Part shown: piece by piece, positions 548-10,620 of the stretch
Numbering within the stretch: position 1 is the first letter of the stretch
Layout of the letters: every line of letters starts with the position of its first letter
Assembly (NCBI GenBank): GCA_043739185.1
Contig: JAYUEN010000438.1
Span: 1 to 10,840 of the forward strand
Source: Bdellovibrionales bacterium
Lineage (GTDB): Bacteria; Bdellovibrionota; Bdellovibrionia; Bdellovibrionales; JAMPXM01
Direction of reading: 5' to 3'
DNA length: 10,840 nucleotides
Translations under genes and position numbers: made by a program
Notes under the pieces: model-generated
What the model saw: the letters and a program-made list of their open reading frames with translations, nothing else
Database searches by the model: none
Told to the model about the DNA's origin: nothing

Positions 548-1393
548 TTATAAAATGAAAGTTGCAAGTCTTACTAATTCGCGTCCAGCTCTATTAGAGA
601 GTACGTCTTTTCTGTAGGCGACAAAAATTTTGTCTTCAAAGATTGGTAGCTTTGAATCATAGGGAACGAGATCGGCTCCGTCAGCTTTAGCTACTCTTTC
701 TGGCAGAATGCCAATTCCTTGGCCCGCCAAAGTGAGAGTTCGAATTAGTTCTAGACTATTGGTATTGATGAGCTTCCAATCCTTGAATTCTTTTGCATGT
801 GTTTTGCCAAGAATATCTTGAATTTGAGCAAGATTGACGTCGGCGAATATTTTCTTGGGAATACTGCCTGCGCCTTTTGCGCGCCAAAACAAAACTCGGT
901 CGTCTCCCATTTTTCTTAAAACTAAATCGGGGTGCCTGACAGGATTGACAACAAAGCCGAGATCGATCTCAAAGGAGACAACCCGCTCAGTTATTTTTCT
1001 TGAAAAATCATGAATCAAATCAATTTCTATTCCGGGTGCATTTTTTTGTAAGCTTTCAAAAAAGCGAGGCAGGGTATATGCGCCCACACTTTGATGGCAT
1101 CCCACTTTGAAATTCGCCTGAAGGGTGTCGAGCGATTGATCTAGATCATGATGAAGCTCATTCCAAGAGTCGAGAAGACTATGCGATTTTTTATAAAATA
1201 AGCTTCCTTGCTCAGTAGGAACGACACCTTGCTTTGTACGATGAAAAAGCTTTACTCCAAGTTTGTCTTCTAAGCGCTGCAGACTTAGTGTGAGGGTGGG
1301 CTGGGTAACGCCAAGTCGGATTGCGGCCTTTGAAACATGGCGCATTTGATAGACTTCAATAAAGTATTCGATTTCATTAGGAGATGCTAACAT
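548..1393 (-). CDS. LysR-family transcriptional regulator
   Basis: 281 aa. N-terminal LysR HTH (VSKAAIRLGVTQPTLTLSLQRLEDKLGVKLFHRTKQGVVPTEQG) and C-terminal effector domain (...FEIDLGF...AGQGIGILP). Confidence 0.96.
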   Translation of the reverse strand: MLASPNEIEYFIEVYQMRHVSKAAIRLGVTQPTLTLSLQRLEDKLGVKLFHRTKQGVVPTEQGSLFYKKSHSLLDSWNELHHDLDQSLDTLQANFKVGCHQSVGAYTLPRFFESLQKNAPGIEIDLIHDFSRKITERVVSFEIDLGFVVNPVRHPDLVLRKMGDDRVLFWRAKGAGSIPKKIFADVNLAQIQDILGKTHAKEFKDWKLINTNSLELIRTLTLAGQGIGILPERVAKADGADLVPYDSKLPIFEDKIFVAYRKDVLSNRAGRELVRLATFIL

Positions 1394-1458: not shown

Positions 1459-2631
1459 CTATATTAGACTTCTTTCATGAATATTCGCGGTTAAAACCTC
1501 TGACCGCTTTTGTAATGTCTGAAAAGTTTGCCATAGCAATGCAAAAAACATGAGCCCAGCGGCTAAATACGGCAGACTTTGAATTTCGTAACCACCTGCT
1601 AAGGCCATACCACCAAGTGCCGTACCGGCGACACTCCCAAGGCTGACAGCAGAACTATTGAGTGCGACGAGAGTGGCGTGCTGATTGGACCCAAGTTCAA
1701 GCAGATTGTATTGCTGAGGGGTTACCGTCGCCCAGCTCAGCGCGCCCCAAATAAAAAAGGGCAAGAGTCCAAAAGTCGGCAAAGCTTGAAGTGTTGGGAT
1801 TGCAATTAGCATCATTAAGTGAAGTACGAGAATGATTGTCATCAATAATTTCGGTTTGCCTATGCGATCTACCAAATAGCCAATAGCGATGCTTCCAATC
1901 AGTCCGCCGATACTCCAAAGAGAGAGAGCCGCATCGGAAGAAGTCACAGTTTTAGAAAGTATCGGTGCAATAAAAGCGTAAAGACCAAGACTGCTTGTGG
2001 CGGTCAAAAGAGTAATACCGATAATTCCGAATACGCGACGATTATTCAAAAAGCGAAATTGCTCCTTTAACGAAGGCGGAGTTTCAATTCGGAGAGATTG
2101 CATGCGAATAGCGGCACCCAAAAGAGCAATAGCCGACAAAGCTAAAATGAGAATGATCGGAGCACGCCAACTCATTCTGTCAGCCAGCCAGAGCCCGAAT
2201 GGAACTCCGACAACGGCACCAGCACAATTTGAACCCCAAATCAAACTAAGCGCCCGACCTCGAGCAAGAGGTGCAACTTCTTGAGTTGCTGAAGCAACTG
2301 CAATCGGAAGAAACAATCCGGCTCCAAGTCCTGCAATGCCTCGACTAACAAGGTAGATCATCCAATGAGTTGACAGAAGTGTGAGCAAATTGCCAGCGAT
2401 GAAAACCAGTAGAGCCCAAATCAAAACTTGGCGCGTCGGTTTTCTTGCGAGTAAGAAAATGCAAATGGGAACCGACATTACGAATGTGATGCCATAGACT
2501 GAACAAGCTTGGGCAGCTACTGCAATGCTGATGTGTAGTGAAGCGCTGATGCTCGGTAAGAGTCCAGCGAAAACATAGTCATCGCAACCGAGTGCAAACA
2601 TTCCGGCGGCTAAGTAGAAAAGCCTTTTCAT
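1459..2631 (-). CDS. MFS efflux transporter (DHA1/PbuE-NepI-like), probable product export or self-resistance
   Basis: 390 aa with about 12 hydrophobic segments. Family-like motifs: FALGCDDYVFAGLLPSIS, RGIAGLGAG, RGRALS, GAVVGVPFG...SWR, GYLVDRIG. Start overlaps the ATP-grasp stop (ATGA, 2628-2631). Confidence 0.93.
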   Translation of the reverse strand: MKRLFYLAAGMFALGCDDYVFAGLLPSISASLHISIAVAAQACSVYGITFVMSVPICIFLLARKPTRQVLIWALLVFIAGNLLTLLSTHWMIYLVSRGIAGLGAGLFLPIAVASATQEVAPLARGRALSLIWGSNCAGAVVGVPFGLWLADRMSWRAPIILILALSAIALLGAAIRMQSLRIETPPSLKEQFRFLNNRRVFGIIGITLLTATSSLGLYAFIAPILSKTVTSSDAALSLWSIGGLIGSIAIGYLVDRIGKPKLLMTIILVLHLMMLIAIPTLQALPTFGLLPFFIWGALSWATVTPQQYNLLELGSNQHATLVALNSSAVSLGSVAGTALGGMALAGGYEIQSLPYLAAGLMFFALLWQTFQTLQKRSEVLTANIHERSLI

Positions 2632-3854
2632 CGAAACTCCAACTTTGACTCCATTGAGCGAATTTTTTTATAATCTAAAAAAATCGAGTCGCGGTCGCCA
2701 GCCAGTCCAATGATTCCGATGCTTGTGAGATAGTCCACGGTTTGGGGTACGAGATCGCCATTTTTAATCCAAATGTGTTTACTGAGAAGTGTTGGCAACT
2801 GTGAAATGCCGTCCAGAACTTCAACATTCAAAGCCGTCCCTTGATTCAAGGCTTTTAAAAAAACTGGTACAACTGTTTTTCTTAATATATATTCTTTGGT
2901 GATGACATCACCATCCGCATAGAGCTCAACTAGTTTGTCGACCTGACTGCTGCCGGTGGCTTCACGAGCAAATCCAACAACTGGTCCGCCAATCATTCTC
3001 GAGCTAGTCTCGATAAATCGTGGACCTTTTGCTGTCAGCATAATTTCAGTATGAGCAGCGCCGAAGCGAATCCCCAAGGCATTCAATGTTTTTTGAGTAT
3101 ATTCAAACAAATCACCGAGAGTTTCTTTGTTAAAAGAAACAAATTCGACATGATCAAAAACCGTTCTGCGTTCACCAGAGTTGGTTTTATTGTATTTGAT
3201 TAAGTGAGTGAGATAGTGTTTGCCATGGGCACTTACGGTGCCGACTGCAAACTCAACACCCACGGCTAGCTCTTGGATCACGACGCTTTCACTTCTTTTG
3301 CCTGATATGACCGAGGGTTCAGTCAAAATCTGATTGAAGGCTTTTCTCCAATTGCCTTTGGCCGGAATGTGAAAAACATTTTCGCTACCTGAAGAACGAG
3401 GTGGCTTGATGATCAGCGGAGAGTCCTGCAAATCGTTTTCTTTGAGCCAGGCTTCGGCTTCACTCTCTAAAGATGAGTGCATTGTTTTGAGTGCTGGAAC
3501 TTGAGCTTCTTCAAGAGTTTTTTGCATAAGAGCTTTATGTGATCGATGCAGTGATGTTTTTGGATCATTGGCAAACTCTGGAGTCAGAACGGCAGTGAGA
3601 TGTTCAGCTAAAGAGATGCCTTCTTCAGTCCCTGGAATGATTGCAATCGGATTGTATTTTTTTATCAGCTTTAATAGATCGGGCTGCTCAGGAATAATTT
3701 CGATGAAGTCTGAAGCTTGAATTTTTGATCCAAACTCAGGCCACTCTTTATTGATTAAAGTAATTGCGATAGCAGGAATATCTCGAGCCCTAAAAGCCGG
3801 AGCCAGTTCTATGCCTGATGAGAGTGGGTCAACAATGACAACGGGTCTATTCAC
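2628..3854 (-). CDS. ATP-grasp ligase (L-amino-acid ligase/BacD/DdaF-like amide-bond-forming enzyme)
   Basis: 408 aa, GTG start. ATP-grasp motifs: K-x2-M (HKALMQ), IIKPPRSSGSENV, VIQE, E-F-x-V, HTEI, FIETSSRMIGG. Overlaps the upstream monooxygenase by 8 nt. Confidence 0.88.
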   Translation of the reverse strand: MNRPVVIVDPLSSGIELAPAFRARDIPAIAITLINKEWPEFGSKIQASDFIEIIPEQPDLLKLIKKYNPIAIIPGTEEGISLAEHLTAVLTPEFANDPKTSLHRSHKALMQKTLEEAQVPALKTMHSSLESEAEAWLKENDLQDSPLIIKPPRSSGSENVFHIPAKGNWRKAFNQILTEPSVISGKRSESVVIQELAVGVEFAVGTVSAHGKHYLTHLIKYNKTNSGERRTVFDHVEFVSFNKETLGDLFEYTQKTLNALGIRFGAAHTEIMLTAKGPRFIETSSRMIGGPVVGFAREATGSSQVDKLVELYADGDVITKEYILRKTVVPVFLKALNQGTALNVEVLDGISQLPTLLSKHIWIKNGDLVPQTVDYLTSIGIIGLAGDRDSIFLDYKKIRSMESKLEFR

Positions 3855-5355
3855 TTCTTGTGCTCCATAGTTGAGGCATCAGCTTATTTAAAGAAGAGGG
3901 GGCGTCCACATCGTCTAGAGAAATGAAAGCTTCGATATAAGAATCGGGCCTTACTAAAATGCCTAGGTCTTTATAAGGAGAATTTTCTGACCAGTTGGCC
4001 TCGTCGCACTTTTTTGGATGAATCTGAATGAGCTTTACATATTCTGGTAAGTTGAGGCCTCCAAGCCAGTCACTTTTCAGGTCACCAAATATAAGTAAGC
4101 TATATTTAGTATAATCCAGCATTGAGTAAAGCCGCGTTTTGGTACTACCCAGACGAGTTTCTTGATTGACTTCTACGTCAAACAATCTCGAGCCGGGCAG
4201 GCCTTCATCGCGGTAGCGAATTCCCATCCCGGTTATATTTCCTGATCGTTTTTGAACTATCTTCAGGTAGTCCAGAGCGTGGGTTCCAGTTTGTGAAAAT
4301 TTTGTCGAGCGCACAAGTTCTCCTGAAGTTTCAATGACACTTTGTGCAACTGGCTTACGCTCGCTTTCATAGCTTTTTAAAAGTTCGGCAGAAGCGCCAA
4401 ATTTCAAAACCATGTTCAGCTTCCACATCAGATTGAAAGCATCTGCTAAACCTGTGTTTAGGCCTTGTCCGCCATTGACTGAATGAATATGACAAGCGTC
4501 TCCGGCAAGAAAAATGCGATCTTGAGCGAAAAACTTTTCAGCCACCGACTCTTTAACTGAAAATCGAGAATACCAGATCACTTCTTTAAAGCTTAATGAG
4601 TGAGGTTGCATAGCACGATTTATTTTGGCAAGGGCTTCTTCAAAGCTGAAATCTTTGGCGTCCATTCTAACGTAAAATCGATCGATATTTCCTTCTCGGG
4701 GTATCCAAGCGACGTCTGAAGTTTCTGCTTGAAAAACGATGATTTCAGGAACTTTTTGAAAATCCGTTTCGATCACTCCGTCGATCACTGCCCATACGAT
4801 TTGAGGACGCTTGATTTCAAAAGCTATTTTAAAATGATCGCGAACAAAAGATTGGGATCCATCAGCGCCAATAACATAACTTGATTGAACCTTTTCTCCA
4901 CTTGAGAGCCTTGTGAAACATTTATTTTCAATGACTTCAATATCTTTTACTGTTGTGGATCGCTTAACCTCAGATCCGATTTTCTTAAGCCTTAAGTCTA
5001 AAAGATTTTCGAGGTAGGATTGTCCAATCATTAAGAAATGTTTGTGAAAGCATCCCTCAAGCTCTTCCCACCAAGAAGATTGACGTGAAAGAAATTTTCC
5101 GTCGGCCCAAATTGAACTTGTATTACAGGCTTTACCCAAAGGATAAAGCTCTTCGAATGAATCGACCAATTCTAAGAGTTGCAGGGTTCGTGCATTGAGA
5201 GCATCAGCTCTGCCGACTTCTAGTGGCCCAGTGGATTTATCTAGAACAAGAGTAGTCAAACCACAGAGTTTGCCAAGATAGGCGCACATGAGTCCGACCG
5301 GACCAGCGCCAACAATAACAATATCGACGATTTCAGTACTCAATTGATTTCTCAT
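3847..5355 (-). CDS. FAD-dependent aromatic monooxygenase (class A, PheA/TfdB phenol-hydroxylase-like)
   Basis: 502 aa. GxGxxG (VGAGPVGL), DG motif (IGADGSQS), GD motif (FLAGDACHIHSVNGGQGLNTG), YESER, and C-terminal LVRPD. ATGA overlap with pvcB at 5352-5355. Confidence 0.93.
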   Translation of the reverse strand: MRNQLSTEIVDIVIVGAGPVGLMCAYLGKLCGLTTLVLDKSTGPLEVGRADALNARTLQLLELVDSFEELYPLGKACNTSSIWADGKFLSRQSSWWEELEGCFHKHFLMIGQSYLENLLDLRLKKIGSEVKRSTTVKDIEVIENKCFTRLSSGEKVQSSYVIGADGSQSFVRDHFKIAFEIKRPQIVWAVIDGVIETDFQKVPEIIVFQAETSDVAWIPREGNIDRFYVRMDAKDFSFEEALAKINRAMQPHSLSFKEVIWYSRFSVKESVAEKFFAQDRIFLAGDACHIHSVNGGQGLNTGLADAFNLMWKLNMVLKFGASAELLKSYESERKPVAQSVIETSGELVRSTKFSQTGTHALDYLKIVQKRSGNITGMGIRYRDEGLPGSRLFDVEVNQETRLGSTKTRLYSMLDYTKYSLLIFGDLKSDWLGGLNLPEYVKLIQIHPKKCDEANWSENSPYKDLGILVRPDSYIEAFISLDDVDAPSSLNKLMPQLWSTRSE

Positions 5356-6200
5356 TTGTGCGACACGAGACGTGGATTGTCTAGAGGTGGATTGCTGAGT
5401 ACATGCACTCGGCGAAGGTGCCTCGGTGCTTTAGTTTCAAAAGCTTCGCGTCCATGTAATAGTGAAAAATTGTCTGCAACTACAATATCTCCTTCTTGCC
5501 ATTCGTGCGCATAGAAATTATTTGGTGAATACAGCGCTTCTCTGAGAGTTCGATGAGATTCATTGAGCTCTTCGTCGTTTAAACCAGTAAATTCAAGAAT
5601 GGGGGGATTGACGAAATGTCCAAATCCCTCTTTGGGAGGTTCATTGTATCGAATCACTGAAAAGTCCCGGTGTGGATGGGAATCAATAATGGGAGAAAGT
5701 GTTTTGCTATCATAATACTCCATTTTTCGTTGATAGCTGCCGGTCATTTTATTCCAGAGTGTTTTTGAATTCTCAGGAGCTGTTTCGAGTGCGAGGACAG
5801 TATTTGAAAAAGTGGTTCGACCGCCCTGGCCTGAAAGAGGTGCTTTCACACAATTAAAAATTTGAAACTCGGGAACTTGTTGGCGATACATTCCATCCCA
5901 ATGTAGGGGAACATAATTATTGTCAAAAATATGATCTTCTGGATTGTTGTGCTCTACTAATTCGAGGACTTTACCAAATGGCCATAAGCTAATTTCGCCC
6001 CACCTTTCACAGTAGTTAGCGAATTCCTCAGCTCCGTTAAGTGCGCGAAATCCTCTTAAAACAATGAGATGTTCGCTCCAAACCTTTTCACGTAGGGCTT
6101 CAATGTCGAGATTGTTGACGTCATCATTTGGGCGATTGGCTTCTAAAAGTAATCCAAATGGTTTGATTGCTTTAATATTAGCTTCAGCTTTAGGCTTCAC
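5352..6200 (-). CDS. pvcB: PvcB/IsnB-type Fe(II)/2-oxoglutarate oxygenase (TauD/TfdA family)
   Basis: 282 aa, GTG start preceded by GGAGG. Facial triad H100-x-D102 (PLHWDGMY) plus distal His (LLHGR), GGRTTF and HEWQEGDIVVADN. Lies immediately downstream of pvcA with an 11-nt overlap. Confidence 0.92.
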   Translation of the reverse strand: MKPKAEANIKAIKPFGLLLEANRPNDDVNNLDIEALREKVWSEHLIVLRGFRALNGAEEFANYCERWGEISLWPFGKVLELVEHNNPEDHIFDNNYVPLHWDGMYRQQVPEFQIFNCVKAPLSGQGGRTTFSNTVLALETAPENSKTLWNKMTGSYQRKMEYYDSKTLSPIIDSHPHRDFSVIRYNEPPKEGFGHFVNPPILEFTGLNDEELNESHRTLREALYSPNNFYAHEWQEGDIVVADNFSLLHGREAFETKAPRHLRRVHVLSNPPLDNPRLVSHK

Positions 6201-7275
6201 AATCGCCTCCTTGGAGTTTCAAAAGGCCTTTATTGTCTTTTAAAATGAAATGACTTGGGCGTCCGAAACGAGTGACAAGGTGGCCACCAAGTATTTCAGC
6301 TTGCGAACGCTTCAAAAGTATAAAGCGCCCGTCAACTTGGACAGCGACTCCATGCCAAGGAGTCTGCCAATTATCAGGCTCAATAAGGCGAATGCCCAAT
6401 TTTTTAGAACCACAACTTTGCGGATGAATTGAAAGTCGAACAGCATCAGGAAATTGCTTTTCAACTAGTTCGCCCCAAGCCTTACTTCTTTGAATGACTG
6501 CATAGGAGCGAAGCCGACATTCTTTCTGCAAGGCCGTACGGCTTTGTTTTTGCCCTGGATAAAGAGCGTCCTCGACAAGAAAGCGCGTAATGCCGCAGTA
6601 AAGTCTATGAGTTTCTTTATCTTCCACTGAGCAAGCCTCAGCTTTTCCTCTATGGACCGAGGCTTTAAGAACATCTATGCTTTCACCAAATTGCTGCATC
6701 AGCTGAGTTCGCATTTCATCAAAGCTGAGTCCTTCAAATAATTCTTCAAGATTGAAAGTGGAGATTGATGCTAAACCCAGTCCCAAGATCATTTTAGAGA
6801 GCTCTTCTTGATAATTGGTGACGTCTATATCACGCATGCCGACGACGTCACTAAAAACTCTACCATCCGAGCACAAGATTATTTTCGCACCAGGTGAATA
6901 GTAGCGCCTCACTCGATCGCAAAGTTGTTGCAGAAATTCAAGGGCACATCTTTCGGCCATATCAGGTAATGGGCCAAGCACTTTGGCGGTATTCGGAGAC
7001 TTACCAGGAAATGCAGGTAAAACAAATAGGACCGGTAAGTTTTGAGTAACCGCAGAGATGATCCTTGAAAGATGCGGCTCTAGGCACTTCTGGCAAGAGG
7101 CCGCCATGCAGGCTGATTCTGAATCGGCTAAGCGTCGAAACTGCATGACGTCTACTAAGATGTTTTTGGCAATAGTCTCAGGCCGTGTCGTCATCAGAGA
7201 GAATTTGGTCTCTAGACGCTGCCTATTGTCGCTGTAGTCTGTCTCATGGTTTAATGAAGCTTCTGTAAATGTCAT
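6190..7275 (-). CDS. pvcA: Isonitrile (isocyanide) synthase, DIT1/PvcA/IsnA family
   Basis: 361 aa. Diagnostic motifs LPAFPGKSPN..KVLG.LPD.AE, CSDGRVFSD, RLSIHPQ...KLGI, TPWHG. SD-like AAGGGG 9 nt upstream of the ATG. Confidence 0.95.
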   Translation of the reverse strand: MTFTEASLNHETDYSDNRQRLETKFSLMTTRPETIAKNILVDVMQFRRLADSESACMAASCQKCLEPHLSRIISAVTQNLPVLFVLPAFPGKSPNTAKVLGPLPDMAERCALEFLQQLCDRVRRYYSPGAKIILCSDGRVFSDVVGMRDIDVTNYQEELSKMILGLGLASISTFNLEELFEGLSFDEMRTQLMQQFGESIDVLKASVHRGKAEACSVEDKETHRLYCGITRFLVEDALYPGQKQSRTALQKECRLRSYAVIQRSKAWGELVEKQFPDAVRLSIHPQSCGSKKLGIRLIEPDNWQTPWHGVAVQVDGRFILLKRSQAEILGGHLVTRFGRPSHFILKDNKGLLKLQGGDCEA

Positions 7276-7300
7276 TTTAGTTTACCCCTTACGTGGCCTC

Positions 7301-7329
7301 AATATAGAAGCAAACCCATTATTAAATAA
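7301..7329 (-). promoter_or_regulatory. Putative sigma70 promoter of the pvcA operon (good -10, poor -35)
   Basis: Minus-strand TATATT (7306-7301) resembles TATAAT. The hexamer 17 bp upstream is TTATTT (7329-7324), a weak -35 typical of activator-dependent promoters. Not experimentally mapped. Confidence 0.45.
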
Positions 7330-7348
7330 AATAAATAACGAATGCTAT

Positions 7349-7371
7349 TATCATAAGTGTTTTTTATGATA
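7349..7371. promoter_or_regulatory. Putative LysR regulatory binding site (perfect inverted repeat with T-N11-A core)
   Basis: TATCATAA-gtgtttt-TTATGATA: 8-bp perfect inverted arms, 7-bp spacer, T7354-N11-A7366. Lies in the divergent pvcA/dioxygenase intergenic region. Confidence 0.8.
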
Positions 7372-7502
7372 TTAAATTCGTAGCATAAAATGCTCCGATT
7401 GTATTGGGGCTGTGATCGCCTAACTAATCATTAATTATGACTATGATGAATGGTCTGGTATTTTATTTTATCGATAAGCTTTTTTAGATTAGGCTTTTAG
7501 GA

Positions 7503-7862
7503 ATGAAATACTTTCATGTCCATATTTACTTTGATGCAAAAGATCTCGAGCTTGCCTACTCTTTGGGAGAGCAAGCCCATTTGACTAATTTCTTTAACAA
7601 TATCAAAATTTTTGAAAAGCCAATAGGGCCGCATCCAAAAGGGATGATTGAAATGCACTTTATCGAATCATCATTTGCTACAATATTAAATTGGGTAAAG
7701 CTTCACCGCAAAGAATTTTCTGTCTTGATTCATGAAGATACTGGAGACGATATAAAAGATCACACAGACGGGATTCTGTGGTTAGGAAAGCAGTTGCCAA
7801 TTGATTTTTCTTTTTTCGAATTGATTCAATTGCACCCTGAGCTTCGAATTCATCCAATATAG
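7503..7862 (+). CDS. DOPA 4,5-dioxygenase family protein (small Amanita DODA-like extradiol ring-cleavage dioxygenase)
   Basis: 119 aa. Family pattern HxHxYF (YFHVHIYF), IGPHP, SVLIH.DTG....DH....LWLG..LP. Confidence 0.88.
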   Translation: MKYFHVHIYFDAKDLELAYSLGEQAHLTNFFNNIKIFEKPIGPHPKGMIEMHFIESSFATILNWVKLHRKEFSVLIHEDTGDDIKDHTDGILWLGKQLPIDFSFFELIQLHPELRIHPI

Positions 7863-9956: not shown

Positions 9957-10035
9957 GCAGGATTTCTGAAGTGTAAACAGCTTTTCTCGTCGAAGGCTTC
10001 TTTCTTTTTTAGTTGGTTTTATGTGGATAACTTCG

Positions 10036-10080
10036 GCTTCAGGCATTCAGTTTTCAGGCACGCTGATCCAGCTTCAGGCA
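10036..10080 (+). repeat. Three short direct repeats TTCAGGCA
   Basis: GCTTCAGGCA 10036-10045, TTTTCAGGCA 10051-10060, GCTTCAGGCA 10071-10080. Confidence 0.7.
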
Positions 10081-10159
10081 AGCAGGATCAAGGACACACC
10101 CATCATTTTATTTTAAGTTTGTAAATCATAGCACACACTAAAAACCTAAACCGAAACCG

Positions 10160-10202
10160 TAAATCGGTTGACGGCCGCACAGCTGCCGTTAAAACTGATT
10201 TA
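10160..10202 (+). other. Long imperfect stem-loop of unknown function
   Basis: TAAATCGGTTGACGGC (10160-10175) pairs with GCCGTTAAAACTGATTTA (10185-10202): 16 pairs including two G-U, plus a 2-nt bulge. Confidence 0.6.
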
Positions 10203-10299
10203 ATCCCTGGACCAAAAAGAAGAAGGGGCCCCGTCGAAATTGAAAGTTATGAATTCAGATAAAATATTTTGAAAATTCCATTTTGCTGTTGAAGTAAAA

Positions 10300-10620
10300 G
10301 CCTGACTACAATTTCCCAGTGCAACTTTTTTCCATCATGACTTCATAAGGTGTTCTCCAGTCAAGGATTTTCATTGGTCGATTGTTGATCTCAAATTCAA
10401 TCAATTCCAGCTCCCGATTGGTGAGGTTTGTCAGGTCCGTTTTCTTTGGATAGTACTGACGAAGGATACCGATTCTGTTTTCATTCGTGCCCCTTTGATA
10501 GCTTGAGTAGGGATCGCAGAAGTACACCTTGATCTTGGTTCTTCGTTCATAGCTTTTATGATCCGAGAACTCCTGACCCCGATCATTGGTCATCGTTCTT
10601 TTTGGAAGATCCCTTAACCC
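10300..10620 (-). mobile_element. IS30-family insertion sequence remnant (3' end with right terminal inverted repeat)
   Basis: Transposase C-terminus plus IR-like GCCTGACTACAATTTCCCAGTGCAAC (10300-10325), which overlaps the stop codon and has the AGTGCAAC inner motif typical of IS30-family ends. The upstream boundary is approximate. Confidence 0.85.
10306..10620 (-). pseudogene. Truncated IS30-family DDE transposase
   Basis: LRDLPKRTMTNDRGQEF (second D), YFCDPYSSYQRGTNEN (E), LRQYYPK and NNRPMKILDWRTP. The frame is closed upstream by TGA at 10642-10644, and no HTH or first catalytic Asp is present in frame. Confidence 0.88.

Follow-up and report, generated by a model that had tools for sequence, protein, structure and literature searches.

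IsnAB vinyl-isonitrile pathways, such as those of rhabduscin, byelyankacin and sinapigladioside, combine a PF05141 synthase with a TauD oxygenase carrying the equivalents of K107 and N188. The gene cluster described here has both. It differs from these pathways in having no glycosyltransferase, and carries instead a PRK07190 monooxygenase, an ATP-grasp ligase, an MFS transporter and a gene of a ring-cleavage family. The paerucumarin pathway of Pseudomonas aeruginosa (pvcABCD, LysR regulator PtxR) also joins PvcA and PvcB with an aromatic hydroxylase under a LysR regulator. Paerucumarin is a dihydroxy (catechol) isonitrile, according to the available text of PMC3639982. Its ring is kept intact. 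Our cluster encodes a single-component flavin enzyme in place of the HpaB/HpaC-type PvcCD, and its PvcB is without the Leu/Cys signature of carboxylate-retaining enzymes.

Tyrosine hydroxylation, extradiol cleavage and recyclisation are the proposed logic of the route to the dermadin-type cyclopentenyl isonitriles of Trichoderma and are also that of the lincomycin/anthramycin alkylproline route; the lincomycin-type dioxygenases have another fold. To our knowledge, bacterial PF08883 enzymes are known almost only by their activity on added L-DOPA. As described in the available parts of PMC6426604 and PMC7533325, the characterised bacterial relatives cleave L-DOPA and one weakly accepts other catechols; for such other catechols, the Km of GdDODA exceeds its Km for L-DOPA by about three orders of magnitude (PMC6426604, same restriction). 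In the literature searched, with most subscription papers outside reach, we found no report of a DOPA-dioxygenase gene tied to an isonitrile cluster, and the available texts on known DODAs report no such context. The same search gave no description of a product for the pvcAB-PRK07190-PRK07206 cluster type, and dermadin was not named in the literature retrieved on the topic.

The window, i.e. the whole stretch of DNA that was analysed, is an entire 10.8-kb contig of a 4.85-Mb genome (G000). The nearest named relatives of its cluster include Bdellovibrionaceae records. Five minus-strand genes follow each other with overlaps of 4-11 bases: pvcA (PvcA/IsnA isonitrile synthase, PF05141; 6190..7275), pvcB (PvcB/IsnB Fe/2-oxoglutarate oxygenase; 5352..6200), a PRK07190 flavin monooxygenase gene with intact FAD fingerprints (3847..5355), a PRK07206 ATP-grasp ligase gene (DdaF/L-amino acid ligase-like; 2628..3854) and an MFS efflux transporter gene (1459..2631). 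A LysR-family regulator cognate to the cluster (72-87% identity in clade loci) is encoded on the same strand (548..1393), 65 bases past the MFS gene. On the plus strand, a 119-aa DOPA 4,5-dioxygenase-family gene (7503..7862) diverges from pvcA, with 227 bp between them (7276-7502). This arrangement, already pointed out in the earlier note, was borne out. The open reading frame scored 97.9 bits against PF08883 (cut-off 25), and the junction is no assembly artefact because a contig of another run bridges 6420-7795 with one difference. Genes for the semialdehyde dehydrogenase or hydrolase of a catabolic meta-cleavage operon were absent from the window.

Outside the cluster, the non-coding stretch 10005-10230 was regarded as a repeated element because four runs showed a very high contig depth there, with many loose ends; it is followed by the remnant of an IS30 transposase at 10306-10593. 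Neither an Rfam nor a tRNA match was found in the window, this stretch included. The genome holds a second isonitrile cluster on another contig (G000:C180; L074:8085-13174), which consists of lysR, pvcA, a pvcB of another type (HWDGAF motif), a cytochrome P450 gene and a glycosyltransferase gene.

The AlphaFold model of the dioxygenase (pLDDT 94) resembled the solved structures 2PEB, 2P8I and 2NYH (TM 0.74-0.79; for the 2PEB/2NYH fold, Foldseek E 2.8e-11, TM 0.79), at sequence identities of 31-34%. H5, H7, H44, H77, D86 and H87 were invariant in all 34 sequences of its lineage. By spacing, these residues match the metal site of GdDODA, AcDODA and AmDODA as given in the available text of PMC9097196 and PMC7533325, and the predicted metal-binding histidines are intact. 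Family, fold, His5/His7/His77 and Asp86-His87 are common to the window protein and the known bacterial and fungal enzymes. It differs from them by an extra C-terminal helix and by a His52 where AmDODA has Trp77, a correspondence mapped by spacing from the available part of PMC9097196 and not by alignment. His52, Asp79 and the C-terminal helix are shared within the lineage, and generic PF08883 members are mostly without them. In a quick tree, the dioxygenases linked to pvcA grouped with 26 database proteins of unknown context; the supports of 89 and 83, on 121 columns, are weak. A lineage member was located in eight genomes, five times beside pvcA. Of the others, G427 has it with a cognate lysR on a contig separate from pvcAB, G230 has it alone with pvcAB elsewhere in the genome, and G428 (360 contigs) has it with no pvcA or pvcB match. 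The lineage thus co-occurs with the pvcAB-monooxygenase genes of one clade in 7 of 8 genomes.

No informative fusion of PF08883 with a pathway enzyme was present among 11 longer matches scanned, and a search of longer proteins gave a single, weak match among 8000 scored candidates. In 6 of 28 generic PF08883 sequences (L151:5934-6347 and five others), an Asp replaces the first metal-site His, a possible change of metal or function.

Linkage was surveyed in 401 genomes of the phylum, with PF05141 detected in 63, PF08883 in 101 and both in 25. Adjacent and divergent pvcA and PF08883 genes were found in 4 of the 63 pvcA-bearing genomes (G000, G400, G280 and G245, with the window's own genome included). 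This adjacency exceeds random gene order and probably goes back to one ancestral event. For a comparison of whole loci, 60 stretches around pvcA were examined; five genomes in which the match was short or split were left out, and pvcA was not called in one of the stretches. Family-level loci were added and two duplicates were dropped, and 66 loci were tallied in the end, 4 of them cut off upstream. Where upstream DNA was visible, the dioxygenase stood next to pvcA in 5 of the 31 monooxygenase-type loci, in none of the 27 P450-type loci and in none of the 4 others; P450-type clusters made up 28 of the 66. The fifth linked locus, in G424, was reached first via the dioxygenase and independently via a pvcB search.

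The linkage occurs in several distantly related predatory-type bacteria, from three families and two orders. All five linked loci fell inside one 14-member PvcAB clade (SH-aLRT 100, quick tree); being kin, they reflect one old association and not five independent events. Conserved linkage was supported within this clade. A regular pathway step was not supported for the gene: 26 of the 31 monooxygenase-type clusters lack an adjacent copy, as do 5 of the 7 that carry an ATP-grasp ligase. Among the linked dioxygenases, synonymous sites were saturated (pS 0.75-1.03) at a pN of 0.22-0.35. Two arrangements occur: in G000, G400 and G280 the dioxygenase is beside pvcA with lysR at the far end of the operon, and in G245 and G424 it lies between pvcA and the cognate lysR. 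The saturation, and an arrangement that outlasted the change in lysR position, indicate that the linkage is old, if optional. No other flanking gene was retained across the linked loci. The identity of the dioxygenases followed that of the clusters (Spearman 0.54, 21 non-independent pairs). A mere passenger, placed beside the cluster by chance, passed on with it and tied to it neither by function nor by regulation, would fit a single event followed by loss in most clade members; we consider this very unlikely, in view of retention across saturated synonymous divergence and rearrangements, and of a conserved box of its own that matches the pvcA box (see below).

Three genomes with a monooxygenase-type cluster and no linked dioxygenase (G120, G288 and G111) had no PF08883 match anywhere in the genome and carry LigB-family genes elsewhere. 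The PF08883 relatives in 17 viral loci (L180-L196; 26-36% identity) and 5 metagenome loci (26-39% for both sets together) had no cluster genes around them. Plasmid searches gave one monooxygenase-type cluster, in Burkholderia stagnalis, with its PF08883 gene about 2 Mb away. A Pfam scan of 151 pvcA-locus neighbours, with 9 of the 160 listed scanned separately, revealed one further ring-cleavage gene. This LigB gene of G400 (L069:5345-6271) is convergent with the terminal lysR of a cluster in which the PF08883 gene is present too, and is probably a separate unit. Two clade members lacking the dioxygenase have an unclassified gene of 160-170 aa, with no Pfam match, in the same divergent slot (L073:7800-8288 and L105:10397-10912). 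The monooxygenase frame seems to continue into the ATP-grasp gene in G281 (L111:5596-8234), and in G120 the monooxygenase gene is split by a frameshift, possibly a sequencing error (L085:10623-12090).

The region between pvcA and the dioxygenase holds two LysR-type palindromes, one per promoter, and not the single box common to both genes that the earlier note had described; a shared box was rejected. The first, ATCATAA-N7-TTATGAT in the pvcA promoter (7350..7370), is the sole perfect copy in the 4.85-Mb genome. It was kept before pvcA in 14 of 14 clade loci with at most three mismatches, with or without the dioxygenase; the shuffle P was at most 0.025, which is a circular value in the case of the window. 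Among the P450-type loci, 7 of 28 reached significance; the 19 other monooxygenase-type loci did not. The second palindrome (7427..7447) lies 55 bp ahead of the start of the dioxygenase gene. Counted from the start codon, its position is -76 to -78 in 7 of the 8 members of the lineage, among them the three unlinked copies (G427, G230 and G428), which were not used in deriving the box. Among the upstream regions of other PF08883 genes, 4 of 33 had at most three mismatches to it, none at that position. A TATT-rich element, read by eye, follows each box; a generic promoter scan (5 sites against 2.7 expected) was uninformative.

Across the loci, lysR was always downstream of one of the two boxes. 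From this and the two matching, positionally conserved boxes, we infer that the cluster's LysR likely co-induces the dioxygenase with the cluster. The linkage itself is real, and a shared regulator of pvcA and the dioxygenase is probable. A regulator in common might also be the only tie, if the substrate of the enzyme were a catechol taken from prey or the environment, L-DOPA or another, with betalamic acid or muscaflavin as possible products. The box retained upstream of the unlinked copies is consistent with this, as is the activity on L-DOPA demonstrated for the family (available parts of PMC7533325, PMC9097196 and PMC6426604). In G359, G365 and G210, more distant PF08883 genes also have a related LysR gene (37-43% identity) as neighbour, in stand-alone divergent units (L149:7543-8839, L150:7032-8877 and L155:4928-6560); G359 and G365 have no pvcA match. 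A substrate of its own nevertheless appears unlikely to us, given the co-occurrence of 7 of 8 lineage members with one PvcAB clade and the position of the dioxygenase beside pvcA in G000, G400 and G280, though lysR is at the far end.

The chemistry of the cluster was predicted from its enzymes. The PF05141 synthase adjoins an Fe/2-oxoglutarate oxygenase with the HxD...H motif, the arrangement that defines IsnAB clusters; PvcA, examined for tyrosine specificity, scored 301 bits against NF045653 (cut-off 600). PvcB shows the GMY pocket of tyrosine-type enzymes and has an Arg (R106) at the position of PlIsnB Lys107 and an Asn (in YNEP) at that of Asn188. K/R at 107 together with N/H at 188 marks the decarboxylating enzymes; this rule is a correlation that was validated on one orthologue, and single mutations left the outcome unswitched (available text of PMC9467999). 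PvcB is thus predicted to be decarboxylating (IsnB-type), with 4-hydroxystyryl isocyanide as its product. A phenol-hydroxylase-type enzyme in the operon, as stated in the earlier note, was supported by 865 bits to PRK07190 (cut-off 530), with VibO and phenol hydroxylase as the nearest solved relatives and VibO as the best structural one. Homology spans phenol 2-monooxygenase, 3-hydroxybenzoate hydroxylase and VibO, so the reaction cannot be read from it and catechol formation is only predicted. VibO dearomatises rather than ortho-hydroxylates. In the sinapigladioside cluster, deletion of an FAD oxygenase left the product unaffected (available text of PMC8252389).

Back-to-back linkage in distant relatives and a matching regulator-type box make it likely that the dioxygenase opens the ring of the pathway product. 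That it acts on the cluster's own catechol, whatever becomes of the cleaved material, we regard as fairly probable. Our main reading, to which we assign a probability of roughly 0.35, is that the enzyme is an optional, long-retained companion of the cluster, that it opens the predicted catechol, and that a ring-opened isonitrile acid is kept as product. PvcA would form an amino-acid isonitrile, probably from tyrosine, and PvcB would decarboxylate it to 4-hydroxystyryl isocyanide, as the two diagnostic residues suggest. The flavin monooxygenase may hydroxylate this compound to a catechol. Extradiol cleavage by the dioxygenase, as its family and intact metal ligands suggest, would create a new carboxylate and an aldehyde. 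The ATP-grasp ligase would use this carboxylate as its handle, and export of the product would fall to the MFS transporter. The betalain-like product once suggested for this locus is made unlikely by the decarboxylating-type residues of PvcB and was set aside for the cluster's isonitrile: the predicted substrate has neither the carboxylate nor the free amine of L-DOPA, which a tyrosine hydroxylase supplies to the betalain pathway, and betalamic acid would not form because the nitrogen is masked and the carboxyl lost.

Several observations weigh against a kept product. Most monooxygenase-type and most ligase-bearing clusters do without the dioxygenase, which is on a separate transcript and can travel with lysR alone, as in G427. 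One lineage member (G428) is without a pvcA or pvcB match, and LysR-PF08883 units exist in pvcA-less genomes. The monooxygenase is nearest to VibO; in the available sources, GdDODA handles catechols other than DOPA poorly and the sinapigladioside FAD oxygenase is dispensable. Cleavage of the same catechol might instead remove an auto-oxidising intermediate or the LysR effector, the ring-opened material being waste. An optional gene on its own transcript fits such disposal or feedback. So does the close tie to the regulator: the lysR transcript begins with the dioxygenase gene in G245, G424 and G427, all 6 linked copies occur with the cognate LysR, and a linked dioxygenase is missing from the 4 clade genomes where the search gave no LysR of more than 50% identity. 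We hold this explanation to be possible but doubtful. The isonitrile predicted from a decarboxylating PvcB has no carboxylate, and the ATP-grasp ligase would therefore lack an obvious one unless the ring is opened; in G221, moreover, an extradiol dioxygenase is set among tailoring enzymes, an amidotransferase and a ligase.

The G221 operon (L083:8643-19001 and L202:1432-4564; G221:C1 at about 440-450 kb) comprises overlapping genes for PvcA, PvcB, an HpaB hydroxylase, an amidotransferase, an oxidoreductase, a LigB/HpaD-like dioxygenase, an SDR, an MFS transporter and an ATP-grasp ligase. Its PvcA, PvcB, MFS and ATP-grasp proteins are 50-69% identical to those of the window. The hydroxylase is of the HpaB family (ortho-hydroxylase), and the amidotransferase is asparagine-synthetase-like. 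In this one genome, unrelated enzymes occupy the hydroxylase and ring-cleavage slots. The parallel supports ring cleavage in such isonitrile pathways. As a source of a ring-cleaved isonitrile, G221 is a better candidate than the window, from which reductases like those of G221 are absent. LigB of this type was found in 1 of the 401 genomes. Two plasmid relatives of it sit in catabolic-looking contexts, so the family is no marker of biosynthesis by itself. The ring-cleavage idea was supported in part, by the linkage within the clade, the matching promoters, the intact histidines and the G221 parallel; a betalain-like product and a regular step found no support.

A further, improbable extension is that bacteria use these clusters to make dermadin-type isonitriles by ring cleavage and recyclisation, and that unrelated enzymes were recruited to this route on two occasions. 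The decarboxylated tyrosine isonitrile would be hydroxylated and cleaved at 4,5 in extradiol fashion, and C-C ring closure and ATP-grasp ligation would follow, with the flavin monooxygenase and PF08883 enzyme acting in the window and HpaB and LigB in G221. Reasoned on the structures, the eight carbons of the dermadin skeleton are all present in a tyrosine isonitrile that has lost its carboxyl. Cleavage at 4,5 would leave a three-carbon acid side chain, and closure from the isonitrile-bearing carbon to the new aldehyde would then yield the eight-carbon skeleton. Unlike the dermadin- and lincomycin-type routes, the window lacks reductases, and the likeness is of chemical logic only. If true, this would be the first biosynthetic role of a bacterial PF08883 enzyme outside betalain chemistry.

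With its conserved position in an isonitrile cluster and its apparent co-regulation, the gene offers a testable natural substrate for a PF08883 enzyme. Disposal of the catechol alone would make it a modest module of self-protection or feedback. With an opened ring and a kept product, the cluster would be a five-gene route, testable in E. coli, to a new isonitrile scaffold, and would offer a handle on a possible origin of the tyrosine-derived cyclopentenyl isonitriles.
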